A stretch of DNA of 64,000 nucleotides from Spirochaetia bacterium (GTDB lineage: Bacteria; Spirochaetota; Spirochaetia; WTKD01), in assembly GCA_965243525.1 (NCBI GenBank), contig OZ251568.1, positions 258,236-322,235 on the forward strand, written 5' to 3'. A program made the translations under genes and the position numbers. This document shows, in pieces, positions 42,449 through 59,249 of this stretch (position 1 is its first letter; each line of letters begins with the position of its first letter). Below the pieces are notes generated by a model. That model worked only from the letters and a program-made list of their open reading frames with translations, was not told the origin of the DNA and searched no databases.

Positions 42449-44377
42449 ATGAATACACGAAATCTACGTATCGGTTTAATTTTCTTAACACTTTGTTCTG
42501 TAATTCTGTTGGGCTGTCCAGAATCAGGAGTCAGTTCAGACCAAATTGCACAAGGTGAATCTGGAGATCGAGGAGACGACCAAACACCAGACTCAGAGAC
42601 AACACCAGAACCAACAACACCAGAACCAACAACACCAGAGCCAACAACACCAGAACCAACAACACCAGAACCAACAACACCAGAACCAACAACACCAGAA
42701 CCAACAATACCAGAACCAACAACACCAGAACCAACAATACCAGAACCAACAACACCAGAACCAACAATACCAGAACCAACAACACCAGAACCAACAATAC
42801 CAACACCAGAACCAACAATACCAGAACCAACAACACCAGAACCAACAATACCAACACCAGAACCAATAATTCCTGATTGGGATACTCCTTATCATGATGC
42901 GATTTTCAAGGCAACACACGATTCTTATGCTGAATCAATCCCTGCTCAGCTCGATGCTGGCTTTCGCTTGATTGAAATTGATTTCCACGACGATGATCAT
43001 GGTAAATATGGGTATCGAGTTGGACACACAGCCCCTGGAACTGAAATTTTTCTGGGGAGTGGGAACCCTGGTAGTGGAGGATATCGCTTGTGGAGTATTC
43101 CAACCACCGATGCATTTAAACTTCCTACTTGGCTTTCGACGCTTTCTTCATGGTCACAGAACAACCCAGGACATGCTCCAATCACTCTGATCTTGGAACC
43201 CAAAGACTCTCTTGTGGACAACAATGGGTATGATGCACATGATCTATCTCGGTTCAACCAGGAACTGCTCGACGCCTTTGGCCTAGACAATATCTATACG
43301 GCATTTGAACAGGGCCCCTCCAATCACTGGCCATCTGTCGATGATCTGCGCGACAAATTCATCATTGTCATGGTTGGAAATGAAGACAATCGTCATTCAT
43401 ACGTCAGAACTCTTGGAAAGACTCCTGCAGTGGCGGTGAACGACCACGGGCAGGCCATCGCGGTCTATCAAAAACCCAATTCACGAGAGCTTTGGTATTG
43501 GACCGGAGAATGGCAAACCGCCAATTCTGGCAACAAGATGCCTGCAGGAAGCATCCTCTGGTTGCGTAATCAACGCTATGCAGAAGGCTATGATACTGAT
43601 AGTCCTCCTACAGTTGCAATCAACAACGAGGGATGGATCGTCGCAACCCACGAGGGAGCCAATCAAGCAATAGAATATCGATTAGGAAAGCTCACCTCTG
43701 AGCTAGACATAGACTGGAAGGCAGGAGCCACCTCTGTCGAAGCTGGCAGCAACCCAGCTATTCGCTTCGACAGCCTTGACAGCAATGCCGTGACGACAAG
43801 GTATACCGGAGTCGACTCAGACACAACGATCTATGAACAAGCTATCACATTGCATGTGGAGAGATCAGCGCTCGAACCATCAGCTGCAACAAGTTTATCT
43901 ACTGATACAAACGAATGGTGGGAGAACAAGAATAGCGCAGTTTCACAGGCAGGCATTGTCGAGGTGAATTCCAACGAAAACAAAGGAAATCTCTTGACCT
44001 ATACCGCCGATGGAAGAACCGGGCGCATCCGCTTGTTTCAGCTTGCATTTATCGAAGTCGAACCAAGCGAGATCAACAGTGATCTGCTATATGCCGAACT
44101 ATACACCGAAACAACGGGCAGGTTTTATTCTGCGGGAAAATTTCCATATCTGGAATTTTTTAATCCTCGTGCAAATTTTGATTCAACCGTGGAACACAGG
44201 ACCGACACAAATGGCAATCCCTTTTTGATAACTCGATATCGCGACTTTGAAGAAGTCAATGCGAGAGAAATCAACGATCCCAGTGCATTGCCTAATTTTC
44301 CTACGCTTCGTCATCCTCGGAACTATCAAGCACAGTGGTATGCTGATATGTTTAATCGAATCCAACACTTTGAATAG
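42449..44377 (+). CDS. PLC-like phosphodiesterase lipoprotein, paralog 3, with a Pro/Thr-rich stalk
   Basis: Lipobox LLGC, then roughly 90 aa of (TPEPT)n repeats, then the same catalytic blocks (ATHDSY, IEIDFHDDDH, YRVGH). Confidence 0.55.
   Translation: MNTRNLRIGLIFLTLCSVILLGCPESGVSSDQIAQGESGDRGDDQTPDSETTPEPTTPEPTTPEPTTPEPTTPEPTTPEPTTPEPTIPEPTTPEPTIPEPTTPEPTIPEPTTPEPTIPTPEPTIPEPTTPEPTIPTPEPIIPDWDTPYHDAIFKATHDSYAESIPAQLDAGFRLIEIDFHDDDHGKYGYRVGHTAPGTEIFLGSGNPGSGGYRLWSIPTTDAFKLPTWLSTLSSWSQNNPGHAPITLILEPKDSLVDNNGYDAHDLSRFNQELLDAFGLDNIYTAFEQGPSNHWPSVDDLRDKFIIVMVGNEDNRHSYVRTLGKTPAVAVNDHGQAIAVYQKPNSRELWYWTGEWQTANSGNKMPAGSILWLRNQRYAEGYDTDSPPTVAINNEGWIVATHEGANQAIEYRLGKLTSELDIDWKAGATSVEAGSNPAIRFDSLDSNAVTTRYTGVDSDTTIYEQAITLHVERSALEPSAATSLSTDTNEWWENKNSAVSQAGIVEVNSNENKGNLLTYTADGRTGRIRLFQLAFIEVEPSEINSDLLYAELYTETTGRFYSAGKFPYLEFFNPRANFDSTVEHRTDTNGNPFLITRYRDFEEVNAREINDPSALPNFPTLRHPRNYQAQWYADMFNRIQHFE
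42598..42866 (+). repeat. Coding 15-nt tandem repeat (about 18 units) encoding TPEPT/IPEPT
   Basis: ACACCAGAACCAACA units with A/G and T/C variants, lying inside paralog 3. Confidence 0.9.
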
Positions 44378-44450
44378 CCGCTAAGACGACCCATGCAGGC
44401 AGCCTCTAAAAATAGAAGATTGCCTGCATGATGCTCTATTCCGTATAGAT

Positions 44451-44580
44451 TTCAATAACCCTGTTCATCTGTGGATCGATGATTTGATCTGGCCACCGCA
44501 TCCTCCTAACAAGGAGTATATCTGTTGTATTCCTTGTCCTTCTTTGCGAGACTTGACGACATTGCCGGTGCTTGAAGATG
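44451..44580 (-). pseudogene. Second remnant of the S24 repressor 3' end (duplication scar)
   Basis: CCGTATAGATTTCAATAACC...GGATCGATGATTTGATCTGG... aligns with 46400-46530 (...GGATCGATGATCTGGGTGCG...). Confidence 0.6.
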
Positions 44581-44762
44581 CGCCTCTGTTGATTCTGGAT
44601 AGCACATCAAGCATCAAACAATTCATACAATACTATTCATGCATAGTCCTCGTACGAAGTTTTTTAGCAAGCCTGAACAGCATCAAAAACCCACGAATAC
44701 TTGCAGAAATAGAACAGGCACGCTATCATATTTACTAAAACTCCCTATTTGTTATTGGATGT

Positions 44763-46331
44763 ATGAATACACAGAATCTACGGATTGGCTTGATTTTCTT
44801 AACTCTTTGTTCTCCACTGCTGCTGAGTTGTCCGGGACTAGGGGTCTATACTGGATTTCGCATAGGTGCTTATCCACCGGTCTCTCCATCAGATCCCTAT
44901 TGGAATACTCCCTATCATGACGCGGTCTTCAAAGCAACGCACAACTCATACACTAGATCAATTCCTGCTCAGCTTGACGCTGGGTTTCGCTTGATTGAAA
45001 TCGATTTCCACGATCAGGCACATACTAATTATGGGTATCGCGTTGGACATTGGTGGCCAGGGCATCAGGTTTCTTACGGCTATGGAAATCCTAACACCAC
45101 CAGGCTCCCTGCCTGGCTTTCGATGCTTTCTTCATGGTCACAGAACAATCCAGGACATGCTCCAATCACTCTGATTTTGGATACCAAGGATCCTATTGCA
45201 GATGCAGATAACGACGGGTACGCCGGACACAATCTATCTCGATTCAATCAAGAGCTACTCGACGCCTTTGGTCTAGACAACATCTATACGGCAGCTGAAC
45301 AAGGGCGCTCTTATCACTGGCCCCCTGTCGGTGATTTGCGCGATAAATTCATCATCGTCATGGCTGAAACTGGAAGGAGTGTAAATCGTCAGGCATATGT
45401 CGGAACCCTTGGAAAGACACCCGCAGTGGCGATGAATGACCATGGCCAGGTCATCGCAGTCTATCAGAAACCTATTTCACGTTGGCTTTGGTATTGGACC
45501 GGAGAATGGCAAACCACCAGCTCTGACAACAAGATGCCTACAGGAAGCATTCTCTGGTTGCGCAATCAGCGTTACGCTTGGGGATTCGATTACGAAAGCC
45601 CCCCTACAATTGCAATCAACAACGAAGGATGGATTGTTGCAACCCATCAGGGAATCAATCAGGTAATAAAATATCAATTGGGAAAGCTCACTCCTGAGCT
45701 AGACATAGACTGGAAGACAGCACCCATCTCGGCTAATTCCGGAAGCAATCCAGCCATTCGCTTCGACAGCCTTGACAGCAATACTCTGACGGCAATCTAC
45801 ACCGGAATCGACTCAGATACAACGATCTATGAACAAGATATTACGTTGCATACAGAGAGATCAACGCTCGAGCTGTCGGCTGCAACAAGCTCATCCAATG
45901 ATCAAAACGAATTATGGAAGAACGTGAACAGCGCAAATTCAAATACAGGCACTGTCAAAGTTAGCTCTGATAGAAAAAATCTCTTGACTTATTCTGCCAA
46001 CGGAAGAACCGACCGCATTCGCCTATTTCAAATCTCTTTCGTCGAAGCTGACCCAGTCAGGATCGGCAGAGACTCCTCATATGCCACGCTACTCACTGAA
46101 ACAACAGGCAGGTTTCATTCTTCAGATAGCCCTGACTCAACTGTTCGCTACAGAACCTCAACAAATGGGGATCCTTTTTTGATAACAAGAAATTTTATGT
46201 TTGGATTAGACGATGCGCATAGAATCAGCGATCCCCGCGCATTACCTAATTTCCCTGCACTTTACAATGCTCATGATTATCGAAGACCATGGTATCACGC
46301 TCTGTTTGGACAATTCAAACATTTCGAATAA
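44763..46331 (+). CDS. PLC-like phosphodiesterase lipoprotein, paralog 4
   Basis: MNTQNLRIGLIFLTLCSPLLLSC. The ATHNSY/IEIDFHDQ/YRVGH blocks. Confidence 0.55.
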   Translation: MNTQNLRIGLIFLTLCSPLLLSCPGLGVYTGFRIGAYPPVSPSDPYWNTPYHDAVFKATHNSYTRSIPAQLDAGFRLIEIDFHDQAHTNYGYRVGHWWPGHQVSYGYGNPNTTRLPAWLSMLSSWSQNNPGHAPITLILDTKDPIADADNDGYAGHNLSRFNQELLDAFGLDNIYTAAEQGRSYHWPPVGDLRDKFIIVMAETGRSVNRQAYVGTLGKTPAVAMNDHGQVIAVYQKPISRWLWYWTGEWQTTSSDNKMPTGSILWLRNQRYAWGFDYESPPTIAINNEGWIVATHQGINQVIKYQLGKLTPELDIDWKTAPISANSGSNPAIRFDSLDSNTLTAIYTGIDSDTTIYEQDITLHTERSTLELSAATSSSNDQNELWKNVNSANSNTGTVKVSSDRKNLLTYSANGRTDRIRLFQISFVEADPVRIGRDSSYATLLTETTGRFHSSDSPDSTVRYRTSTNGDPFLITRNFMFGLDDAHRISDPRALPNFPALYNAHDYRRPWYHALFGQFKHFE

Positions 46332-46381: not shown

Positions 46382-47374
46382 CTATCCTTCGAGCCTTCCC
46401 GTATAAACTCCGATGATTGTGTCCATCTGCGGATCGATGATCTGGGTGCGTCCGCTGCCATCCTCCCAACAAAGGGTATATCTGCTGTATTGCTTGTCAT
46501 CCTTTGCAAGACCAGGTGATATCGTCAGACGTTTGAAAGTGCAGCCCTCGAAATCGTGGACATAGGCAACGACCAAGTTATTGTGTTCAGGGATGCGATC
46601 TTGCACGGCAAAAACGATATCCCCGTCGTGAAAACCAAGATTTGACATGCTCTCACCCTTGAGTTTGAAAGCAATAAGGGCATTAATCGAAGCATGTGCG
46701 GGCAATTGTGCAATCGGCACCTCAATTTTTTTCATTTCTTCCGGAATGAGACGAGGATTTCCTGCGGCAAGATCCTCCACAAAGCGTATGCTCACTCGTG
46801 AATCGTCCACCGAAGACTCCCCCTGCTTGTTTGCAGCACGCCCCTCTCTCTCGAACGAAGCAGCCTCCAAATACCCATGCCCATCGACCTTCCCATCTTC
46901 CATAGATTCTTCCTTCCTTTTATGATCAACGCCGTCAATCTTGCTCATTCGTATCGGTGGAGAATGCATTTCAGAATCACGCACAGGGTCTGCATCAAGT
47001 CCAGAATCCTGATGCACAAATCCAGGATCCACCTCCTGCAACAATGCCAGCGTCGTGGCAGCAGTGTCCCGTGTGTCTTCAAGCGCCCTGATCAGCGCCG
47101 CATGCTTCACCGAGGTCATCCATCCTTCCCCTGCCTGCTGTTCAAACACCTCGCTGAGACCAGCATCCAGAGCGCGACACAGACGATGCGCCGTATCGAT
47201 ACGCGGAATCTTGCCTCCATAGAGGATGCCCGAAATGGTGCCAAAACTGACCCCGCTCTTCTGTGAAAGCCAATTCACCGACTGCCCCTTCTTGAACAAA
47301 GCCCTCTGTAATGCCCGTGCATACCTATTCATACGATCACCGGGATATCTGCCATCAAAGTGTTGACATATCAT
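46382..47374 (-). CDS. cI/LexA-like autoproteolytic repressor (XRE HTH plus S24 peptidase domain)
   Basis: N-terminal HTH (QSVNWLSQKSGVSFGTISGIL). Candidate Ala-Gly cleavage site (LAAGNP). C-terminal S24 domain with a Ser (KGESMSN) and a downstream Lys. The start could be the internal MNRYARAL. Confidence 0.7.
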   Translation of the reverse strand: MICQHFDGRYPGDRMNRYARALQRALFKKGQSVNWLSQKSGVSFGTISGILYGGKIPRIDTAHRLCRALDAGLSEVFEQQAGEGWMTSVKHAALIRALEDTRDTAATTLALLQEVDPGFVHQDSGLDADPVRDSEMHSPPIRMSKIDGVDHKRKEESMEDGKVDGHGYLEAASFEREGRAANKQGESSVDDSRVSIRFVEDLAAGNPRLIPEEMKKIEVPIAQLPAHASINALIAFKLKGESMSNLGFHDGDIVFAVQDRIPEHNNLVVAYVHDFEGCTFKRLTISPGLAKDDKQYSRYTLCWEDGSGRTQIIDPQMDTIIGVYTGRLEG

Positions 47375-47458: not shown

Positions 47459-47818
47459 ATGTTCAACCGTTTTCATAAGAAAGAGGATTCTCGATCCCCT
47501 TCAAAAACAAAAAACCAAACCAGAACTGCACAGGAGACGCAACTAGCTTTAGCCGTGGATTCCCCAATTGATAGGCAGACCGAAAAACAATCCACCGCCG
47601 ACACAGATATTGCTGTTTTTTCTCTTGGAATGAACAAAAAGCAGAGCAAAACAATCGCGCGATTATGGCAAGCCTGGGTGCAATCCCATCCAACCACGGC
47701 TCTGCATGCCTTCATTTGGCGATGCTTTCACAAAAACCCAATGCAGTTAACCAGGCGGGAAAGAAAAAACCTCATTAAGATGTTGAAAAAAGGAAGAATC
47801 CGCAGTGTCGCGACGTAA
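47459..47818 (+). CDS. Hypothetical protein (phage-like regulatory region)
   Basis: 119 aa ORF with a basic C-terminus. It overlaps the next gene by 14 nt. No recognisable domain. Confidence 0.4.
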   Translation: MFNRFHKKEDSRSPSKTKNQTRTAQETQLALAVDSPIDRQTEKQSTADTDIAVFSLGMNKKQSKTIARLWQAWVQSHPTTALHAFIWRCFHKNPMQLTRRERKNLIKMLKKGRIRSVAT

Positions 47819-48217: not shown

Positions 48218-48679
48218 CTATTCAGCTGGAGATTCGCCGGAACTTTCCGCATCCCTCGTCGACGCATCTGTCTCAGGGGCTGCATAATCAGACCAATCTT
48301 GCGACTCGACCCGACGATGTGATTCTGCTCGCACCGCCTCAACATAGGCGTGATACTCAAGAAAAGCCTGCGTTCCTTCTCCACCCGTCATGATCGTCGA
48401 CATATTTTCACGAACCAGCTCGCTCTCTCTGTTCTGGTCATAGCGCCGTGAAATCTGATCGACAACCCATGCCTTGCGTCGTGATTCAAGCTGTCTCGCC
48501 TTGGCTTTCTGCGGTGCCTGAACAATCACACCGTCTTCCAGTTTGAACTGCAGGTTGCCGTTATCATCCACCAAATCTTGAAATAATCCCTCTGGCATAT
48601 CCTCTTCTGAGAATGCGCCAACATCGTCCGCATAGATAGTGTGAATATACCCTTGCCTATTTGTTTCTATTGTATACAT
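48218..48679 (-). CDS. Hypothetical protein, possible tail-fibre assembly chaperone (Tfa-like)
   Basis: 153 aa. Its start overlaps the stop of the giant fibre gene (ATGA). The call rests on position and size only. Confidence 0.3.
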   Translation of the reverse strand: MYTIETNRQGYIHTIYADDVGAFSEEDMPEGLFQDLVDDNGNLQFKLEDGVIVQAPQKAKARQLESRRKAWVVDQISRRYDQNRESELVRENMSTIMTGGEGTQAFLEYHAYVEAVRAESHRRVESQDWSDYAAPETDASTRDAESSGESPAE

Positions 48680-51600
48680 TATGCAAAACCTCCTTGCAAG
48701 CGAATATTTAGGTATGCACTCGCGTTTTCGTTTTCTTGGATATAATCCATGATACCAAAGCTTGTAAAAAGAAAGCCGCCATCACTTCCTTGTGAGGGGT
48801 TATTCCTACAAAATAGATGTCGGTCCAAAATTCTATGCCCAACAACTCCACTACTATCAATATATCCAGGAACAGGGTACGTCAAAGTACTGTATCCAAT
48901 ACCCCAACCAGGATTGAATTTCAATCCACCTCTAAAGTTTCCGGGAAAATTAGAAAGAATAAAATACACGTGCAAGCAAACCACACGATAATATCCTACT
49001 TTTATTCTCTGATACCACTCAGATCCCCACTGCTGATTTTCTGGTTGTTGTGTCCAAATGTTTGATGGTCCAAATTCTGTATTTGAATTAATTAATGTGA
49101 AAAAGATACTTTTTCCACCTTCAGTGGCTGATCTGTGAACATAAAAATGTCCTCCATAGTGATTCTCAAATGCACCTAAAGGATGTATAGTATCATGCAT
49201 TACACCGGTGCTATTACCACTTGTAATGGTGTGTTTAATTCCCGTGTTCGCAGAGATACGAAGATCCCGACGAATGGAGGGCCTTCGATTCGGAGGAAAG
49301 ATTCCTTCCAAGTGAATGCCGTATTCAGCCGCACCATAGGGACTGGACATCGCAAGCCCCAATGCATCGAGCCTGGTCTTGCCAATTGCGGGAATTCCAA
49401 AGGAATAATAGTGTCCAATCGAACTCTCTCCCACATCTCTTCCAACACCTCGATTCAGTCCAGTTAATTCCATATCAAAATAGCTTGTCTGAATCTCTGC
49501 GTCGGCTAAATTTTTTCCTACCAAATTGCCCCCATAACCAACGCCGCTGACCGTTCCGATTGCATAACATCTCTCGATGCTTTGTTGATTCTGCCCCGCC
49601 AAGCCACCCATATCGTGGAAACTGCCAATTCCTGTGACTGCTCCGCCCGCTGTACAATCTTGAATAGTTCCGCTATTATTGCCTACGAGTCCACCCAGAT
49701 CTCCTGTTCCATTGACTGCCCCGCTCGCTGCGCATAAAGTAACACTCGTATCCACATCGTTAAATCCAACTAAACCGCCAACGTGTATCGATCCATTGAC
49801 CGTTCCGTTCGCTGCACTACGCGTTATGCTGTTTTTGTTTTCCCCCACTAGGCCGCCGACATGAACATTGTCTCCAGTTCCACTGATCGATTCATTGACA
49901 TCACCACTTGCAACACAACTCGCAATGTTTCCTTCATTCCAGTTTACTCCCACCAATCCCCCAACAGAAAGATGATTATCCTCACTCGCAACACTCCCTC
50001 TTCCAGTGACAGCTCCATTTGCTCTGCTCTGCAAGATACTCCCTCCGTTCCAACCCACCAAACCACTGAGATACAAATATGTACTATTTACATTTTCTGC
50101 ATTCATTTCGCATCTTGCATTCGCAGTGCTGTTTGTGATGCTGCCTGTTGCGTTGTTTGTTCCTGCTAAACCACCGAGACAGGTGTCTCTGTCAACCTCT
50201 GTAATACCCCCGCTCAATACAACAGATCCACGGGCGGCGGTAGTACTATCCGTGATACTACCGCTATTCGCTCCTACCAAACCACCAAGATACAGATACC
50301 TACTCGTTATGATGCCCTCATCCAAGGTGACTGCTCCACTTGCAATGCTGTCGGAGATACTGCCACGACTAGTTCCTGTCAAGCCACCGAGATTCAAATA
50401 AGTACTCCTTACGGTGCCATCACGCAGGGTAACTGCTCCACTTGCACTGCTCTTGGTGATACTGCCAGTATCTCCTCCTATCAGGCCTCCAAGGCGCAGA
50501 GAGTTACTACTCGTACTGGTTCCAGTTAGTTCGACTGTTCCACTCAGCGTGATTGATTTGTTTGCGTTGCTCTTGATGATGCTGCCAGAACTCCCGCCTA
50601 CCAATCCACCGAGTTGCAGAACGTTACTACTTTCACTGCTTCCATTCAGCGTGACTGACCCACTCAGTTTGATTGGTCCATTCAGTTCAGATGCTTCAAA
50701 TACGCTGCCATTGACGATGCGAGCATTATCGTAATTCCTACCCACCAAGCCACCAAGCTGCAGATAATTGCTATCTTCAACGGTTCCACCCAATGTCACT
50801 GATCCAGTCAGCTCAACCCCTCCACTTGCAATGTCATTAATGATGCTCCCAGAATTCGTTCCCACAAGACCACCAAGGCGCATGTAGATAGTATCCTCGG
50901 TAATTGTTCCAGATATCTTAACTGAAGCACTTGCGTGGTTCGCGGTGATCTTCCCATTATTCCACCCCACTAGACCACCAAGACGCAGTCTATTGTGCCC
51001 TTCAGAGCTTCCATTCAGACTGACTGATCCGTTTAGATCGATTTCCCCACCTGCACTACTGTTGCTAATCCTGCTATCCTTGTTCGAACCCACCAACCCA
51101 GCGAAGTCTAGATAGGTGCTATCCTCTGCGTTATCTGCACTCAGCTCAGTTGAATCTCCCATCGTGACTCCTCCACTCGCCTTGCTGTTGGTGATGCTGC
51201 TATCTGCATTCCGTCCTGTCAATCCACCAGAGTACAACTCTGTATACTGTACAGTGTCTCCAGATAACCTTACAGATCCATAGGAAACGCTGTTCTTGGT
51301 CCTACTTTCCGAATTCCATCCTACCAGACCTCCAAGATTCAGAGATTTGCTGCGTACAGTGTTCCCTTCCAACAAGACATCCCCCCCTGCAGTGCTGTTG
51401 GTGACACTGCTGCTAGCACTTACTCCCGCCAAGCCTCCGAGATACAACCGATGACAATTTACCGAGTCTCCGCTTATCGCTACGGATCCATTTGCTTGAC
51501 TGTTGATAATGCTATCATGGTTCAACCCTGCCAAGCCCCCGAACCTCAGAGCAAGATTATCCCTTGTGAGGCTTCCACTCAGTTCGATTGATTCATCCAA

Positions 51601-54600
51601 TTCGATTGAACCATCAGCCTCACTGTTGGAGATGCTGCCATTATTATCTCCCACGAGTCCCCCCAGAGTCAGATTGATTAGCTCTATATTCTCACCGGTC
51701 AACTCGATTGATTGATCCAGATAGATTGATCCATTTGCATAACCGTTGGTGATGCTGCCAGAAAAATTACATCCCACTAATCCGCCAAGACACAGATAAC
51801 TCTTATTCTCATTGTTTCCGGTCAACTCGATTGATTCGTTCAACTCGATTGATATATCTGCACTGCTGTTGGTGATGCTGCCAGAAGAATTCAGCCCTAC
51901 TAATCCGCCAAGTCTATCATTTCCTCTGATAACTCCTCGTTCTGCACTGCAGTTTTCGATGCGACCACGGTTAGCTCCTGCCAATGCCCCTACATATTTC
52001 TTCCCTGTAATGCTGGGATTCCTGCCATTGCCATCAATAAGCTCGAGCTTGAGATTGCGCACAAGGCCATTCGCTGCTGCATCATAGTCTTCGTCAGATC
52101 CTGTGCGACCTATCTGAACAAAAAATCCCACATAGTCTTCATCTGCCTGTGCTATCTGCAAGCCAATGATTGTATTGCCATTCCCCTCGAGGATACCTAC
52201 AAAGGGGTCATCCTTGCTGCCAATAGGATCAAATACGCCACTCAAGATGATGTCGTTTGCAAGTTTGAAGGTGCCCGCAAGATTGTCTCGAATCTTCTGC
52301 AGATCCGCTCCATTGTTAATTAATTCATAGGTGATGTCTGCGGCTTCAATATTCGATCCGATGAGCACGTCGGTGAGTTCTTGACCGTCCCGTTCAAGAC
52401 TTCCACTGAAAGTTGAACCGTTTATATCCCCTTCGTTTTCTCCAGCAACACCGCCAAGGACAGCATCTGTTTCATCTCCGATGATGCTTCGGACTACTCT
52501 TCCCTCATCGATCTGTCCACTGTTTTTCCCTGCGATGCCTCCAAGAACAGACTCTGTTCCGCTCGCCGTAATGTTACCAGTCTCTCCAGACACCATATCT
52601 CTCAGGCAACCACTGTTTTCTCCGGCGATACCGCCAAGAACAGACCCTGTTCCACTCGCTGTGATACCGGCAAAAACCCGTCCAGAATTTATATACCCGG
52701 TGTTTTCTCCCGCGAAGCCACCAAGGACGGCATTTGTCCCACTGCTGATGATAGTGTCACCTCTCACTGTTGAGTCATTGATGTACCCTCCGTTCTTTCC
52801 AGCAATCCCACCGAGAAAGACGGATTCTCCACTTGCTGTAAGGGTGCTTTCAGCATTTGCGGTATGTACATAACCAGTGTTTTCCCCAACGATCCCACCA
52901 AAAATGATGTTCGCTCCACTTCCCGTGATATCCTTGATGGTTCTTACATCATCTATGTAACCACTGTTTTTTCCAGCGATTCCACCCAAAACAGTTCTTG
53001 CTTTACTCACTGTCATGTTGCTGTCAAACCATGCATAATATAGATGTCCACTGTTCTCTCCGACGATTCCACCAAGAATGGCTGCTTCTTCATTCGTTGT
53101 AATACTGCTATAAACTGTCACAGAATCCACATATCCGCTGTTTTCTCCAACAATACCACCAACACGACTCTCTTCCGCACTTCCTTGGACGCTGCCTCCA
53201 CTCACCTCGACTGCTTCGATGCGACCATAGCTTTGTCCTGCCACTGCACCGGCAAACGCACTGCCTGCAATGCTGGGATTCTCAGCATCTCCATCCACCA
53301 ATACAAGATTCAGATTACGTACAACTCCTTGCTGATAAACGCTGACATCACCAACTTCTGGCGCTCCAATCTGAGCGAAAAAGCCTGCCTTGTCGGTTTC
53401 TGCTATCTGCAGACCACTGATTGTCTTGTCATTGCCGTCAAAAACTCCCACAAAGGGATTCTCTTCACTGCCGATGGGCTCAAATGCACCACTCAGTTCA
53501 ATGTCATTTTCAAGTCTGAAGTTTCCATCAAGCTCATCTCGAACCTTCTGCAAATCTGCTGCACTGTGAATCAGCGTATACGCCCTCTGCTCTTCTTCTG
53601 TGTTTCCAGCATCTGTCTGTCTCGATTGCCATTGCAGCTTCGGCCATGCTCCTTCTCGCATCTCCCACGTATTCTCAAAATCCCAACCTGGAAAATTTTC
53701 CTGGGTTATGATATCACCATCTCCAGTTCGAACCGGATGGAAGGGTGGCTTGCCTTCAACGAGCTTATCCTCCACCGCGACCCCGTGTTCAACAACACCG
53801 CCGCTCGCAAAATCATCTCCAATGAGCACCTCAGAAACAGTGTCATCTCGACGCTGTGTTCTGAACTTTGCCGATCCAGTCAAGAGGTTGAACTTGCTTC
53901 CTTCAGTGACTCCTGAATCATCAAATTGCTGCACCCCACCGACAATCACCGGATTGCCATCAGCATCTCGGAGTGGTGGTCCCTTCTCCCAATTCGTTGA
54001 TTTAAGCGTCATCGATTCCAAATGCGTTGCATCAATCTGATAAGCACCCAAATGATAGGCCTCAATTGAATTTGCCTGGATATCTTCACCCCTCCACGGA
54101 CGGATCTCAACATCCAGTGAATCAGACCATGGACTTTGTGCATGAATATTAGTTCTACTGTCCCAGTTATCGGGATCTTCGATGTTCACCTCGTCAAGAT
54201 TATCTGATCCATCTCCTCTGATAACTACTGGACGTGATTCTCCATACACCACGACACGCACACGAAAACGATATCGCTTGGGTACCGGTGTTTCCTTTAT
54301 GCTCGTGGAATTACCAACCCCACCTTCTGCAGAATCATCCTCTGCACCTTCTGCAATTGTCCCTGAGGAGTTATTCTCGACATCTTCTAAGGTTATTTCT
54401 GCAGAATCATCCTCTGCACCGCCTAAGATTGTTTCTGCAGAGCCATTCTCAACACCGCCTTCGCCTGTCTCTGTTGAGTGATCCGAACCCTGCGTGATCG
54501 TCGCCACACCGAGATCAAGTTTCGAAAAGGTAATAGGAATCTCTGCAGTCGCCGTATAATCCTTTTCCTCGTCTTGAGGGTTTTCCGGATTGAACCAAAC

Positions 54601-56604
54601 TCTGTCTTCATCGGCGAGATCATCAGCAGCATTTTCACTTGCTTGCACATGATAGATCAACTGCGAACCCTTGGGAAAATCATTGCTCAATGAAACCGTT
54701 TGCCAAGAGAGCACCACGGCGCGACCGTATTGGTCCACTCGAAGGTTATCGATTTCCCCCAGATGAATCGCTGGAAGAACATAGTTTCCCTGCTCGTCAA
54801 ATCCTTCCGCGGGGTCCTCGAAAGATTCATCTATTGCGATGGGCTGCAGACCTTGTCGCCTGGGCAATTCCTCAATGATTTGTTGTCGCTGCGCCTCAAG
54901 CATCTCTTCCATCCGACGCAACACCGCATCATCCCTGTTCAACACTGCTTTGGCTTCGCTGACAAGAACTTGATGCACATGATTAGTTGCAATCGGCTGA
55001 ACGATCTCAGACTTGTACGAATACATCGTCTCTGCACGCAAATCCTCGCTGTCAGGGGCCAAAAAATCGCGTATCTTTTCTTTTCGCTCACAAATCCGCA
55101 CCCGAAGCACCTTGTCTCGTTGAACTTGCTCGTTTCTGTCAAAGGAAACACGAAGGGTATAAACACCACCCAATTCCAAAGGTTTCCTGTTCTCAAAACT
55201 ACAACTCCGCTTGCCATAGCTTTCTATCTGATAATACGTCTCTGCAACTTTGGTGAGTATTCCAGAGCGCCTCTGCTCATCGCTTGGCAAAAAGAGTCGA
55301 TCTGCCTTTATCGTTTTTGGGTTTTTCGGCGCAACTCCTTCTGGCTTATAAACAAAGCGTTTATCGACTTCATGTTCAAGAGTAATATCTCCCCGTACTT
55401 CTACTTCCCATTTTCCCTCCCATTCATTCCAGTGAATTGCATAGAGATCATGTCCTAGCGTCAGCTTGATTGATTCAGGTTTTAGTTCATGAGAAAGGGA
55501 GAGATTACAACGCTGAGAAGAAACTCCTCTGTAATCTTCATGGCGAAACGTTCCCTCGTTAGTTTCGAACCAAGAATCAGATCTTTCCGTATGATGCCCT
55601 GATCCCCAAATAAATTGTCTAGTGGAAAGCTTCTTATAGGTTCTTATATTAGAAAATCGAGTGATCGTTGGATTTTCCAGCGAGGTTAATTTATCAAGGT
55701 CTGGGTCAAATTCAATTTCTTTTTCCTCTGTTTCATTACTCACTCGTGTTTTGATATCATCATAAAAATCCTCAACAAGAGGCACGTCTTCAAACGTGGT
55801 TATATCGCGATAAGAAAGATAGATTCCATCGTGTTCATATCCAGTATAGTTCACCGAGGTCTGTCTATCGAGCACCTCGCAATCCTCTGCTTGAGTTATT
55901 GCTTCAGTTGAAAGATGCAGATCTGCGAAACAAATATGCCCGCGTTCATCGGCATACATCGTGTGATGATGTGATTTGAGCACCTCAGTGATCGTCTTTA
56001 ATATCGTTTCATCGCCATCAAACTCGTGATAGGGTGCATCGTAGTCAATTGCCTGATCGGTGGGTGCAAGATTGATCAAGCCACGCAAATTCGAATCTAA
56101 ACAATCGAGCAATCCATGGATGAGTGATTTTCCTGGGTTATTTGGAAGAAAAACCTTGCGCTCTGAATCGTATTCAAAATATTTTGTATCATCTGCATCC
56201 TCATCCTGTGATGCTTGCACTATGTTGTTCTTCAGCAACCACAGTGAATCGTATATCCGAAAATCAGTTTCAGAATAGCCTTTTCCTCCAGAATTTTTCG
56301 TAGGAGGATCAAGAAACCCTGTGAATATTATTTTGTCAGAATATTCCCTTGTATGTGGATTATAATCCCCTTGGATCATAAAAACTTCTGCGCGAATCCA
56401 ATCGTAATCACCCAGGCGGATTTTTAAATCTTCCTCGCTAATCCACCCCTTGAGACGAAAACTGCAGGTCCCTATTTTTGCTCCACCTTGTTGGTGAAAC
56501 GTACGCTGTATTCTAAGCGTTTTTTCCCTGATGTCAACGGTATATCCAGCATACTGCGTGCCAGGATTCCCATCTTTGATAGCTGTTAAAAGTAACTTAT
56601 GCAC
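48679..56604 (-). CDS. Giant (2641 aa) phage tail tip/fibre-like protein with GLUG modules and long GGLVG-type beta-helix repeats
   Basis: It lies immediately downstream of the TMP-like gene. N-terminal roughly 550 aa of tail-tip-like region. WDFENTWEMREGAWPKLQW at about 53.6 kb. Two GLUG N-modules (DLQKVRDELDGNFRLENDIELSG... and DLQKIRDNLAGTFKLANDIILSG...). Roughly 2.8 kb of GGLVG.N repeats. A C-terminal domain of about 400 aa of unknown function. Confidence 0.7.
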   Translation of the reverse strand: MHKLLLTAIKDGNPGTQYAGYTVDIREKTLRIQRTFHQQGGAKIGTCSFRLKGWISEEDLKIRLGDYDWIRAEVFMIQGDYNPHTREYSDKIIFTGFLDPPTKNSGGKGYSETDFRIYDSLWLLKNNIVQASQDEDADDTKYFEYDSERKVFLPNNPGKSLIHGLLDCLDSNLRGLINLAPTDQAIDYDAPYHEFDGDETILKTITEVLKSHHHTMYADERGHICFADLHLSTEAITQAEDCEVLDRQTSVNYTGYEHDGIYLSYRDITTFEDVPLVEDFYDDIKTRVSNETEEKEIEFDPDLDKLTSLENPTITRFSNIRTYKKLSTRQFIWGSGHHTERSDSWFETNEGTFRHEDYRGVSSQRCNLSLSHELKPESIKLTLGHDLYAIHWNEWEGKWEVEVRGDITLEHEVDKRFVYKPEGVAPKNPKTIKADRLFLPSDEQRRSGILTKVAETYYQIESYGKRSCSFENRKPLELGGVYTLRVSFDRNEQVQRDKVLRVRICERKEKIRDFLAPDSEDLRAETMYSYKSEIVQPIATNHVHQVLVSEAKAVLNRDDAVLRRMEEMLEAQRQQIIEELPRRQGLQPIAIDESFEDPAEGFDEQGNYVLPAIHLGEIDNLRVDQYGRAVVLSWQTVSLSNDFPKGSQLIYHVQASENAADDLADEDRVWFNPENPQDEEKDYTATAEIPITFSKLDLGVATITQGSDHSTETGEGGVENGSAETILGGAEDDSAEITLEDVENNSSGTIAEGAEDDSAEGGVGNSTSIKETPVPKRYRFRVRVVVYGESRPVVIRGDGSDNLDEVNIEDPDNWDSRTNIHAQSPWSDSLDVEIRPWRGEDIQANSIEAYHLGAYQIDATHLESMTLKSTNWEKGPPLRDADGNPVIVGGVQQFDDSGVTEGSKFNLLTGSAKFRTQRRDDTVSEVLIGDDFASGGVVEHGVAVEDKLVEGKPPFHPVRTGDGDIITQENFPGWDFENTWEMREGAWPKLQWQSRQTDAGNTEEEQRAYTLIHSAADLQKVRDELDGNFRLENDIELSGAFEPIGSEENPFVGVFDGNDKTISGLQIAETDKAGFFAQIGAPEVGDVSVYQQGVVRNLNLVLVDGDAENPSIAGSAFAGAVAGQSYGRIEAVEVSGGSVQGSAEESRVGGIVGENSGYVDSVTVYSSITTNEEAAILGGIVGENSGHLYYAWFDSNMTVSKARTVLGGIAGKNSGYIDDVRTIKDITGSGANIIFGGIVGENTGYVHTANAESTLTASGESVFLGGIAGKNGGYINDSTVRGDTIISSGTNAVLGGFAGENTGYINSGRVFAGITASGTGSVLGGIAGENSGCLRDMVSGETGNITASGTESVLGGIAGKNSGQIDEGRVVRSIIGDETDAVLGGVAGENEGDINGSTFSGSLERDGQELTDVLIGSNIEAADITYELINNGADLQKIRDNLAGTFKLANDIILSGVFDPIGSKDDPFVGILEGNGNTIIGLQIAQADEDYVGFFVQIGRTGSDEDYDAAANGLVRNLKLELIDGNGRNPSITGKKYVGALAGANRGRIENCSAERGVIRGNDRLGGLVGLNSSGSITNSSADISIELNESIELTGNNENKSYLCLGGLVGCNFSGSITNGYANGSIYLDQSIELTGENIELINLTLGGLVGDNNGSISNSEADGSIELDESIELSGSLTRDNLALRFGGLAGLNHDSIINSQANGSVAISGDSVNCHRLYLGGLAGVSASSSVTNSTAGGDVLLEGNTVRSKSLNLGGLVGWNSESRTKNSVSYGSVRLSGDTVQYTELYSGGLTGRNADSSITNSKASGGVTMGDSTELSADNAEDSTYLDFAGLVGSNKDSRISNSSAGGEIDLNGSVSLNGSSEGHNRLRLGGLVGWNNGKITANHASASVKISGTITEDTIYMRLGGLVGTNSGSIINDIASGGVELTGSVTLGGTVEDSNYLQLGGLVGRNYDNARIVNGSVFEASELNGPIKLSGSVTLNGSSESSNVLQLGGLVGGSSGSIIKSNANKSITLSGTVELTGTSTSSNSLRLGGLIGGDTGSITKSSASGAVTLRDGTVRSTYLNLGGLTGTSRGSISDSIASGAVTLDEGIITSRYLYLGGLVGANSGSITDSTTAARGSVVLSGGITEVDRDTCLGGLAGTNNATGSITNSTANARCEMNAENVNSTYLYLSGLVGWNGGSILQSRANGAVTGRGSVASEDNHLSVGGLVGVNWNEGNIASCVASGDVNESISGTGDNVHVGGLVGENKNSITRSAANGTVNGSIHVGGLVGFNDVDTSVTLCAASGAVNGTGDLGGLVGNNSGTIQDCTAGGAVTGIGSFHDMGGLAGQNQQSIERCYAIGTVSGVGYGGNLVGKNLADAEIQTSYFDMELTGLNRGVGRDVGESSIGHYYSFGIPAIGKTRLDALGLAMSSPYGAAEYGIHLEGIFPPNRRPSIRRDLRISANTGIKHTITSGNSTGVMHDTIHPLGAFENHYGGHFYVHRSATEGGKSIFFTLINSNTEFGPSNIWTQQPENQQWGSEWYQRIKVGYYRVVCLHVYFILSNFPGNFRGGLKFNPGWGIGYSTLTYPVPGYIDSSGVVGHRILDRHLFCRNNPSQGSDGGFLFTSFGIMDYIQENENASAYLNIRLQGGFA
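49680..52480 (-). repeat. Coding GGLVG.N.GSI.NS.A.G repeat array (beta-helix-like) inside the giant protein
   Basis: Dozens of imperfect repeats of about 20 aa. The plus-strand shadow ORFs read PTKPP, the reverse complement of GGLVG. Confidence 0.8.
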
Positions 56605-57787
56605 CGATCAACTCCTCTGTTCTCTGCACAGAATTAACCATGCTCGCAAATTCATTTGCCACATCGGTTTCAATCACCGATCCCTGCACCGTAATATTGT
56701 AATTGTGGTAGGTATACACTATTTGATACCCTTTTCCACCCCCTCCTGTATAATCGTCAAGACGATCCAAGGGAATAATCGCCTCAGATTGAACTTCACC
56801 CACTCGATACAACCCACCATAAGGGGGTTGTGCTGGAATGATGCCTCCAAAGGCTGCCCCAGGATATGGTTGACTTGCAATCATGGCTATTTGTGTTGCT
56901 CCTATCGCCGTAGCAATCAGAGCAGTAGCTATAGCCACTGGGAGCGGATTGGTTGCAAATGCAGTCAGAACTGCAAGGCTCGTTTGAATAACTGCATTGG
57001 CAATAGCCACTTTCTTCTTTTGCTCAAATTTTCGTTTGTCAAGATCTTCTTGCCTTGCATCAATATCTTCTCGATCTTTCTGCAACTTTGCCATCTCTGT
57101 TCTTTCATATTCAACCCATTCTTCATTTGCTGCCTTGCGACGCTCAACCTCTTCCTCCAAAGTGCTTTGTTTTTCGTCAAGCCCTTCCGTATCCTCATCA
57201 ATCTCACTTTGTTCCTCTTGAAATCCCTCAGCAGCTGCTGCATCTACCATTGAAACAATTGCCGAAGAGAGTCCTCCAATGGCTGCTCCGATAGCCATGG
57301 CCTGTTCTTGCCATGTATTGCTTTTATCCTTCACTACTTTCGTTTGTTCACTATCATAATCTAAAAATGTATCAAGAATACCTACGACACTTTCAATAGA
57401 TGCCTGGATCCCCGAAGAAAATACGCCTGCTTTCTCTTCAGTTTCACCAAACATTTTCATTATTTCACCAACAACGGGACCCACAGCACTGGTGATACCT
57501 CCCGTCACATCAGAAAGATTCTGGACCCCCTCTGCCTTAGGTATCGTCGCAGCTGATCCGCCAGCGTCTTTTTCGGGAAATTCATGCCCAAAATAAGAGA
57601 GGACACTCGTGATCGCTGATCCTATGTCAAATGTTTTTAAACTAGAAAAGGCCTGTTCAATTTCACCAATACTTGTAGCACCCTCCTTAAAGAGACCAAC
57701 AAGATCCTTAACGGCTCCGCCAAATTCAGAAAATCCATCGATCATTGCATTTGTATCTGTTGTTTTATCCGCCATTTTTTTCTCCAA
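56597..57787 (-). CDS. Tail tape measure protein-like (short, 396 aa)
   Basis: Coiled-coil acidic central segment, a hydrophobic Ala/Ile-rich stretch (VAIANAVIQTSLAVLTAFATNPLPVAIATALIATAIG) and a Gly-rich C-terminus. It follows the G/GT chaperone genes. Confidence 0.6.
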   Translation of the reverse strand: MEKKMADKTTDTNAMIDGFSEFGGAVKDLVGLFKEGATSIGEIEQAFSSLKTFDIGSAITSVLSYFGHEFPEKDAGGSAATIPKAEGVQNLSDVTGGITSAVGPVVGEIMKMFGETEEKAGVFSSGIQASIESVVGILDTFLDYDSEQTKVVKDKSNTWQEQAMAIGAAIGGLSSAIVSMVDAAAAEGFQEEQSEIDEDTEGLDEKQSTLEEEVERRKAANEEWVEYERTEMAKLQKDREDIDARQEDLDKRKFEQKKKVAIANAVIQTSLAVLTAFATNPLPVAIATALIATAIGATQIAMIASQPYPGAAFGGIIPAQPPYGGLYRVGEVQSEAIIPLDRLDDYTGGGGKGYQIVYTYHNYNITVQGSVIETDVANEFASMVNSVQRTEELIGA

Positions 57788-57891: not shown

Positions 57892-58176
57892 CTAGTTTCT
57901 TTCTGCTTTTTTTTGCAATTTCCAATTTTCAACGCGTACATACGCGAGATCAATGATACGTAATACCGTAAGAACAATTGGCTTTTCATGAACATAGCCA
58001 CGCCCGTGGGGAAGTCCGAATTGTTTCCAATCTGACCAGAGTTTCATCGCTGAATAATACGTCTGGTCAAAGATTTTTCGCATCTCCTCAACTTCTATAA
58101 TCCCATCGGGGGTGATAACTGCCACATCGTCATCACCCCGACAGAATCCGCACAGGGCAGCCCGTATCAGTTTTTT
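57892..58176 (-). CDS. T-like extension of the tail assembly chaperone (GT fusion by a -1 programmed frameshift)
   Basis: The -1 frame is open from the slippery site through the 77-aa ORF (…KKLIRAALCGFCRGDDDVAVITPDG…) with no stops. Confidence 0.55.
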   Translation of the reverse strand, partial: KKLIRAALCGFCRGDDDVAVITPDGIIEVEEMRKIFDQTYYSAMKLWSDWKQFGLPHGRGYVHEKPIVLTVLRIIDLAYVRVENWKLQKKAERN

Positions 58177-58535
58177 TGTTGTTTCTCACTCAATTGCTCA
58201 CCTTGTGTAACATAGCGAGCAAGTTCCTGAACCAAGCCCATAATAACGGGGGTCTTGGCTCGTGCAAGCTGCAGCCCCGTTTCAATCTCTGTCTCTTTTC
58301 CATCAACAACTAATGAAAGATTGTTAATTGCTCCAACATGTTTTTCAAGAATTTCCTTGGTATCGAATCGAAATCCAATCGTGCCGTCCATTTGATAATT
58401 AATTTTTTGCAACTGCTCAGATTCCAAAACCGTCGGCATTGAAATATTCACTGTGATTTGTTCATCCTCATTCAGTTTTCGATTGCCATTCCACTTTGGA
58501 ACATAGCGAACCTTTGTATTGGTTGCGATTTTCAT
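58167..58535 (-). CDS. Tail assembly chaperone, G-like
   Basis: 122 aa, between the major tail protein and the TMP. It ends …EKQQKN* with A AAA AAC three nt before the stop. Confidence 0.55.
   Translation of the reverse strand: MKIATNTKVRYVPKWNGNRKLNEDEQITVNISMPTVLESEQLQKINYQMDGTIGFRFDTKEILEKHVGAINNLSLVVDGKETEIETGLQLARAKTPVIMGLVQELARYVTQGEQLSEKQQKN
58170..58176 (-). other. Slippery heptamer A-AAA-AAC (programmed -1 ribosomal frameshift site)
   Basis: Canonical X XXY YYZ heptamer immediately before the stop of the G-like ORF. The -1 frame continues into the downstream ORF. Confidence 0.6.
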
Positions 58536-58544
58536 GAACTACTC

Positions 58545-59249
58545 CTAAATCTTATGCTTGTACACGTGAGGATGTGCGCCACCAACAACCGTAAAATTAT
58601 AGTTGAAAGTCTGCATCCCACTTGCTGGCTTGTCTGTTGTGATTGAATCAACAATCATCGGCAAATACATCCAGATTTCATACCCACTTGCGGAGCTGCC
58701 CTTTTCTTTTCGAGAAAGCAATGCGTGGATGGTTCCAGCGCTTGATTTCCTCTTTTCTGTCAGACTACTACCTTCGTTCGTGACAATTGTCCAAAACTTG
58801 TTGAGCAGACGATCTTGTGCATCTGATCCATCAACAAAATAGCCATTGACTGCGCCAGAGATTTCTGGTCGCTCGCTGAGCACATAGGTCTTTGCCTCAT
58901 CAAGCTGAGTTGTTGCGTCAATCTTTTCAAGGGTGCTCCCCAATGTAATATCAAGCACATTGGCAAGCTTGACCAAGGTGAACTTTTTCAACTCATCACC
59001 TGCAGTCAGTTTTGTTCCAGCTGCAAATTCCGATGGAGTTTTGAAAACTCTGCCGGGGGTCATTCCGGCGGGAATGGGATAAATGTCAGTTCCAGTCGAA
59101 TCTTGAGATCTCAAAGACAACACTTGGTACCATGAATCTGCTTCCAAGGTGCTTCCACCGGTTAGGTTGGCCCCATCTGCAAAATCCAATTCATACAGGA
59201 GCCCTCGTTGTCCTGTTAAACGAATATCACTTATATCTCTTTGTGTCAT
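58545..59249 (-). CDS. Major tail (tube) protein-like
   Basis: 234 aa. It is called by conserved position, immediately upstream of the G/GT chaperone pair. Confidence 0.4.
   Translation of the reverse strand: MTQRDISDIRLTGQRGLLYELDFADGANLTGGSTLEADSWYQVLSLRSQDSTGTDIYPIPAGMTPGRVFKTPSEFAAGTKLTAGDELKKFTLVKLANVLDITLGSTLEKIDATTQLDEAKTYVLSERPEISGAVNGYFVDGSDAQDRLLNKFWTIVTNEGSSLTEKRKSSAGTIHALLSRKEKGSSASGYEIWMYLPMIVDSITTDKPASGMQTFNYNFTVVGGAHPHVYKHKI

Follow-up and report, generated by a model that had tools for sequence, protein, structure and literature searches.

The stretch of DNA analysed here (64,000 nucleotides (nt) of contig OZ251568.1 from a Spirochaetia bacterium, hereafter the window) carries, within a block of prophage genes, two small overlapping open reading frames (ORFs), G and T, which are candidates for a phage tail assembly chaperone gene whose short product, G, and longer fusion, GT, would be made by programmed −1 ribosomal frameshifting. 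All coordinates given for the G/T locus refer to the minus strand of the window. G (58167–58535) starts with ATG and encodes a tail-assembly-chaperone-like protein of 122 amino acids (aa; about 13.9 kDa). T (57892–58170) extends it in the −1 frame by 92 codons and a stop (LIRAALCGF...KKAERN*), has homologues and bears a conserved FGLPHGxG..E motif.

The 3′ end of G reads AGT GAG AAA CAA CAA AAA AAC TGA, which is the ending described in an earlier examination of the letters and ORF translations alone (the sequence-only reading), apart from one codon that had been given as GAA and is GAG. The slippery heptamer that had been singled out there, A_AAA_AAC, is present at 58170–58176 and lies in the X_XXY_YYZ phase of G that characterizes canonical −1 signals, so placed that the Lys codon AAA would occupy the P site and the Asn codon AAC the A site of the ribosome. 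The stop codon of the 0 frame (TGA, 58167–58169) abuts the heptamer without a gap. On the other side, the final −1-frame stop before the slip site (TGA, 58186–58188) sets the 5′ limit for any shift that could give a fusion, and from 58185 the −1 frame is open down to its stop at 57894–57892, including the claimed uninterrupted passage from the slip site into the downstream 77-aa ORF (92 open codons, reaching to 57892). The 0 and −1 frames are jointly open for 19 nt only, and the sole canonical slip site lies inside this overlap; by our own estimate, an in-phase XXXYYYZ heptamer would arise by luck at the approximately five possible positions with a probability of about 2%. The two ORFs therefore share the 3′ end of the first, the second being in the −1 frame, and the shared stretch includes a slippery sequence, as in known G/GT pairs. 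A tandem −1 slip at this site would join the 122 residues of G to 92 further residues (LIRAAL...AERN) in a fusion of 214 aa (about 24.6 kDa), one residue longer than the figure of about 213 aa that had been proposed. No promoter-like or terminator-like signals exceeding expectation were found around the junction.

Homologues of both parts exist, although never as one annotated protein. An exhaustive HMMER protein search retrieved 96 proteins, and a word-indexed protein search with the fusion returned the window's own G protein only. The G-like proteins are about 120 aa long, are 27–45% identical to G of the window (28 homologues aligned) and mostly end in ...E-K-N, with K-N at or near the C-terminus in 16 of 29 sequences. 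The T-like proteins are separate entries of 77–121 aa that have F-G-L-P-H-G-x-G-x-x-x-E in common. None of the 96 matches covers both the G and the T portions of the query, which is the pattern expected of frameshifted pairs that have not been annotated as such.

The loci that encode these proteins were gathered from viral, genome and metagenome contigs by means of a degenerate DNA pattern for FGLPHGxG...E and were filtered with hidden Markov models. Since the pattern skews the collection toward loci that keep the T motif, three loci reached via G alone served as a cross-check. The T domain is encoded at 71 loci, and at 60 of these a G-like ORF stands in the frame that makes T the −1 frame; a G-like ORF that would place T at +1 was found at none of the 71, and a +1 frameshift was accordingly dropped as a candidate mechanism. 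Among the 52 non-redundant loci, 34 have a canonical heptamer in phase, compared with a mean of 6.6 and a maximum of 14 when the overlap regions were shuffled 500 times. The sequence-only reading had pointed to related genomes as the place where the heptamer and the two-ORF arrangement should be looked for, and the answer is clearly positive. The heptamer is A_AAA_AAC at 27 of the 52 loci, A_AAA_AAA at three, C_CCA_AAC at two (L121 and L187), A_AAA_AAG at one (L041) and, doubtfully, C_CCG_GGA at one. The substitutions are thus confined to shifty heptamers, which argues for selection on slipperiness rather than on the encoded Lys-Asn. The three loci reached via G read GAA AAA AAC TGA (two loci) and GTA AAA AAC TCC (one locus), each followed by a T ORF in the −1 frame; one of them carries a variant motif, and another (L260) has no called T gene at all. 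The conserved arrangement and slip site in diverged homologues are what a G/GT pair would be expected to show.

Conservation at the level of the protein leads to the same place. When the conceptual fusions are aligned, K-L at the junction is conserved in at least 90% of them, amid a linker that is otherwise variable, and the residues encoded in the −1 frame are conserved from the slip site onward, 15 codons upstream of a GTG codon at which a separate T protein of the window could start. This indicates that ribosomes enter T through the shift rather than at a start of its own. The stop codon directly abuts the heptamer at 22 of the 34 loci that have a canonical heptamer, a recurrence that points to slow termination as a contributor to the shift. 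Horsfield and co-workers reportedly described, in 1995, a pausing effect of stop codons placed 3′ of heptamers in Escherichia coli.

Of the remaining 18 loci, three have no obvious motif in the overlap, and 15 belong to a sister clade with a GGGGGA-type motif (GCG GGG GAR). The loci of this clade (among them L002, L005, L011, L013, L023, L024, L145, L146, L158, L174, L207, L222, L227 and L232) lack an X_XXY_YYZ heptamer and have NNG GGG GAR in a short overlap, often beside a stop codon. A single tRNA may slip on G_GGG in these sequences, which would make this a non-canonical frameshift site of a chaperone gene.

The composition of these sites also bears on the possibility that it is the RNA polymerase, and not the ribosome, that slips. 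One A added to a fraction of the transcripts at the A7 run (58176–58171 with the preceding A) would produce a fusion of the same length, differing by Lys in place of Asn at residue 122. The window site is indeed a homopolymeric run of seven A, runs of A7 to A9 occur in the relatives (GGG AAA AAA AAC, GAA AAA AAA ATT), and transcriptional slippage on runs of A or T is known from insertion sequence (IS) elements and from Thermus dnaX (PMC5009743). The −1 layout is kept, however, at the two loci with C_CCA_AAC and in the GGGGGA-type clade, where there is no long homopolymer, and the heptamer strictly keeps its phase, to which a polymerase would be indifferent. Efficient transcriptional slippage in bacteria typically takes place on runs of about nine nucleotides, and A7 falls below that length. 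The motifs of these relatives and the constancy of phase argue against polymerase slippage as the mechanism of the family, and we regard it as a very unlikely source of the fusion.

A further argument on the side of the ribosome comes from the RNA downstream of the slip site in the relatives. Across the family, the 50 nt that begin 4 nt past the heptamer fold with a mean z-score of −2.06, and 49% of these segments have z below −2, compared with means of about +0.4 to −0.5 at control positions of the same loci. Many relatives have a long hairpin that begins 6–8 nt past the heptamer. In a clade of eight sequences (L003, L008, L009, L012, L015, L021, L177 and L108) this is a hairpin of 16 base pairs (bp) with a 4-nt loop, separated from the heptamer by a 6-nt spacer; 95% of its positions are paired, three pairs show compensatory double changes, and the structure scores far above controls in which the register was slid. 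Its role as a frameshift stimulator in these relatives is well supported, and covarying hairpins at this distance suit a stimulator of ribosomal slippage rather than slippage of the polymerase.

The genes on both sides of the pair resemble those that usually flank a tail assembly chaperone. Directly upstream of G lies a gene for a major-tail-protein-like product of 234 aa (58545–59249, minus strand). Its match to the major tail protein family phrog_158 is weak (E-value 0.008), and BLASTP aligns it with E-values of 1e-35 to 1e-38 to the products of the ORFs located directly upstream of G in the relatives. Just upstream of the ORF of major-tail-protein size, the relatives have HK97-gp10-like genes and SPP1-gp17 tail-completion genes. 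Downstream of T lies a tape-measure-like gene (56597–57787, minus strand), which would encode 396 aa if read from the TTG at 57787 or 392 aa if read from the ATG at 57775; the latter start, with a GGAGA ribosome-binding site ahead of it, is the more likely one. The product matches several tape-measure PHROGs (best E-value 6e-8) and aligns, with an E-value of 1e-17, to the C-terminal part (about residues 620–770) of the product of an 800-aa ORF that follows T at locus L041 and that is itself a tape measure (phrog_9959, E-value 5e-55). The pair is therefore located between a major-tail-protein-like and a tape-measure-like gene, as expected of G/GT, and the setting is the tail module of a siphovirus-type prophage. 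The location upstream of the tape measure gene that had been claimed holds for this adjacent ORF of 392 or 396 aa; it does not extend to the ORF of 2641 aa that comes next, which matches GLUG motifs only.

Taken together, the synteny, the frame relation and the conservation of the slip site in homologues support the tail-assembly-chaperone frameshift that had been proposed, and from the sequence it is very probable that a siphovirus-type prophage has its G/GT tail-assembly-chaperone pair here and makes the two products by programmed −1 ribosomal frameshifting. Several observations weigh against this reading. It is based on sequence analysis. In E. coli, A_AAA_AAC is far less shift-prone than A_AAA_AAG (PMC5009743). 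The RNA of the window lacks the stem-loop or pseudoknot that many relatives have at the appropriate distance: a small hairpin close to the heptamer does not reach significance (z = 0.06), no significant structure occurs at a spacing of 5–9 nt 3′ of the heptamer, and the strong hairpin of 20 bp that does follow (58099–58148; −27.7 kcal/mol, z = −5.3, with none of 200 shuffles as stable) begins only 21 nt 3′ of the heptamer. Structures that stall the ribosome on a slip site do so at a spacing of 5–9 nt. A spacer of 21 nt exceeds what a canonical stimulator would allow, which makes the role of the strong hairpin uncertain. A pseudoknot between CUGCC (58160–58156) and GGCAG of the hairpin loop was considered and is not claimed, being a pairing of 5 bp only, of doubtful steric feasibility and not backed by covariation data.

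The same hairpin includes the signals on which an account of the locus without any recoding would depend. According to that account, G and the 77-aa T are separate proteins, translation of T begins at the GTG at 58125 with the help of the Shine-Dalgarno (SD)-like sequence GGGGTGAT (also given as GGGGUGAU), and the heptamer is incidental or a by-product of the encoded Lys-Asn. The sequence-only reading had held that the ORF at 57892–58125 has no independent start codon; that had been deduced rather than seen, and an in-frame GTG is in fact present at 58123–58125. It is the predicted start of a separate 77-aa protein (P0003) with its own entry in the protein library, T-like ORFs are likewise entered as separate proteins for many relatives, and a sequence with partial SD complementarity, some 10 nt ahead of the GTG, also counts against the frameshift. 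Nevertheless, this GTG is probably not a real start. Conservation in the −1 frame (KKLR.A..) starts at the slip site, ahead of the GTG; the called starts of T are not conserved, and L260 has no T gene call whatsoever; T always stands in the −1 frame, overlapping G for a short stretch; and in-phase shifty heptamers exceed the shuffles about fivefold. Moreover, the strong hairpin contains the GTG in its loop and the SD-like sequence in its stem, and suppression of internal initiation of T would be as plausible a role for the hairpin as one in frameshifting. We consider independent translation of the two ORFs very improbable.

The remaining points that weigh against a G/GT pair concern the relationship of the proteins to known families and the state of the element. 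Neither blastn in its distant mode nor tblastn found a match among 50,697 phage genomes. Searches of Pfam and PHROG (E-value at most 0.01) with G, GT, 29 G homologues and 20 T homologues gave nothing except isolated unrelated matches, and by sequence the pair thus falls outside the described chaperone families (Pfam Phage_TAC and the PHROG tail assembly chaperones). G and T were modelled separately with AlphaFold. The model of G has a predicted local distance difference test (pLDDT) score of 85.5, with residues 114–122 forming a disordered tail, and a Foldseek search with it against the PDB found nothing at an E-value of 0.001 or below. Against BFVD, the top match of the G model is an unnamed protein (E-value 2e-4), followed by several weak matches annotated as tail assembly chaperones with template modelling (TM) scores of 0.39–0.49, a faint similarity that speaks for the pair. 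The T model (pLDDT 87.4) has weak, unnamed viral matches only in BFVD. Finally, the prophage is possibly defective, given that its tape measure has about half the usual length and that T is separated from the tape measure gene by what looks like the scar of a duplication.

In view of these results, we file the pair as a functional analogue of the known chaperones, by position and by recoding, that comes from an uncatalogued sequence family. A bolder proposal, which we put forward tentatively and as somewhat short of an even chance, is that G and T represent a tail-assembly-chaperone family absent from Pfam, the PHROGs, the PDB and cultured phages, with an unusual signal (a stop codon that abuts the heptamer, and a sister clade with G_GGG_GAR), of which the window copy would be a minimal version made up of heptamer plus stop.

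The analysis shows how the sequence is built, which genes surround it, that frame and slip site are conserved and that the relatives have hairpins; for the frameshifting itself, its efficiency and the functions of the proteins we go by inference. In the proposed course of events, most ribosomes would finish G at the TGA, and a minority would slip one base back on A_AAA_AAC, with tRNA-Lys and tRNA-Asn re-pairing from AAA and AAC to AAA and AAA; the shifted ribosomes would then read CTG ATA CGG... in the −1 frame and complete GT. The signal of the window is probably a bare heptamer of low efficiency that is aided by the adjacent stop codon, which might lengthen the pause during which the slippery tRNAs are on the ribosome. 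By analogy with lambda, the tape measure protein would be the binding partner of the G part, the major tail protein would be recruited by the T part, and the frameshift would set a low ratio of GT to G. In lambda, about one GT per 30 G suffices (PMC5009743), and the lesser shiftiness of A_AAA_AAC relative to A_AAA_AAG fits such a low ratio.

A frameshift within the tail assembly chaperone gene is conserved among long-tailed double-stranded DNA phages (Levin 1993; Xu, Hendrix and Duda 2004, 2013, 2014; reviewed in PMC5009743). The locus of the window shares with gpG/gpGT of lambda the two small overlapping ORFs between the genes of the major tail protein and the tape measure, the short product accompanied by a C-terminally extended fusion with a common N-terminal domain, and, as in lambda-type systems generally, the persistence of this arrangement despite divergence of the sequences. 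It differs from lambda in that G and T of the window have no detectable sequence similarity to the lambda proteins, the heptamer is A_AAA_AAC instead of G_GGA_AAG, the 0-frame stop abuts the heptamer, and T has its own FGLPHGxG..E motif.

The closest parallels for the heptamer itself are found elsewhere. The cluster of IS elements that employ A_AAA_AAC, which we take to be that of IS1 insA-insB′, frameshifts at low efficiency. It resembles the window, with no properly spaced structure, both in the heptamer and in having no established stimulator, whereas its product is a transposase fusion and its proteins are unrelated to a tail chaperone. For this cluster, Sharma et al. (2014) describe bacterial −1 frameshifting at A_AAA_AAC as proven and a stimulatory structure as not established (PMC4066793). 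The g-t gene of the haloarchaeal tailed virus HCTV-2 uses the same heptamer (PMC5009743), and the annotated tail assembly chaperone of Haloarcula hispanica tailed virus 2 (HHTV-2) is a weak structural match of the G model (probability 0.75, TM score 0.42, E-value 0.12); both, however, are archaeal viruses, and no sequence similarity to their proteins was detected. Since A_AAA_AAC works in the IS cluster and in HCTV-2, and since the ratio required in lambda is low, the literature supports function of the window site without a stimulator. The dnaX gene of E. coli has an A-rich heptamer of the same class (A_AAA_AAG with a stem-loop), which is the heptamer of L041, and the stem-loops 6–8 nt downstream of the heptamer in relatives of the window locus are a further likeness. 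The dnaX signal differs in being highly efficient, in having an SD-like element upstream and in giving a truncated rather than an extended product, and the window has AAC in place of AAG and no structure at the right spacing.

Several further features of the element in which the pair resides, and of its surroundings, were noted. An imperfect direct repeat of about 40 nt (57947–57908 and 57813–57776, minus strand) brings the 3′ end of T (CGCGTATGTACGCGTTGAAAATTGGAAATTGCAAAAAAAA) a second time just upstream of the ATG of the tape measure gene (alignment score 36, compared with 16.6 ± 2.7 for shuffled sequences); in the relatives, the end of T overlaps the start of the tape measure gene, and the repeat looks like a scar of recombination or duplication. 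The tape-measure-like protein is about half as long as those of the relatives (about 800 aa) and lacks the conserved N-terminal tape-measure region, which could mean a short tail or a defective element that has suffered a deletion. The 2641-aa ORF (48679–56604, minus strand) begins inside the tape-measure-like gene, 8 nt short of its end, and contains many GLUG motifs (Pfam PF07581, E-value 1.5e-49). It was dropped as a candidate for the tape measure, as it has the GLUG motifs only and matches no tape-measure PHROG, nor any PHROG at all; its product might unite the roles of a distal tail protein, a fibre or an adhesin. A single ORF of 153 aa separates it from a gene for a CI-like repressor (46382–47374, minus strand) with helix-turn-helix and S24 peptidase domains (phrog_4, E-value 1.6e-16). 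Given where the tail genes lie, the proximity of this repressor to the tail end of the prophage is unusual; it may be the sign of a prophage boundary or of a rearrangement. Ten large ORFs, eight of them in the interval 26737–46331 beside the end of the prophage and two at 47459–47818 and 48218–48679, were searched against NCBIfam; nine had no match, and the exception (26737–28395) weakly matches models of Dot/Icm Ank-family effectors. The host genome (a contig of 1.79 Mb with a GC content of about 45%) looks poorly characterised.

The prophage might accordingly be defective and the frameshift signal an intact relic that has ceased to serve tail assembly here. Consistent with this possibility, the 392/396-aa ORF matches the long tape measures of the relatives in their C-terminal part only, the repeated end of T suggests a rearrangement, and only the GLUG ORF and the 153-aa ORF remain before the CI-like repressor and genes that do not look like those of a phage. 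On the other hand, every ORF of the tail module is open, neither G nor T nor the slip site shows degradation, and tape measures of small size are known; the window does not reach the head side, so that it gives no basis for judging whether the element is intact. We consider a relic rather unlikely, and retain a working G/GT pair as the preferred explanation.

The mechanism proposed for this locus is a textbook one, and nothing is changed in what is known of frameshifting. The gain is a corrected annotation, the definition of a G/T family with a conserved T motif, and a series of slip-site variants that includes the G_GGG_GAR clade. The unnamed 122-aa prediction and the 77-aa prediction, which are separate in the public protein data, should be joined as one frameshifted tail-assembly-chaperone gene, and the same correction applies to the relatives at the 52 non-redundant loci on viral, genome and metagenome contigs. 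Once joined, G/T anchors its neighbours as the major tail protein and tape measure genes, in an element whose proteins otherwise match almost nothing. The family also widens the sequence diversity of the sets on which predictors of frameshifting are trained and benchmarked, and it offers a natural series of slip sites (A_AAA_AAC, A_AAA_AAG and A_AAA_AAA, C_CCA_AAC and G_GGG_GAR), with or without an adjacent stop codon or a hairpin.

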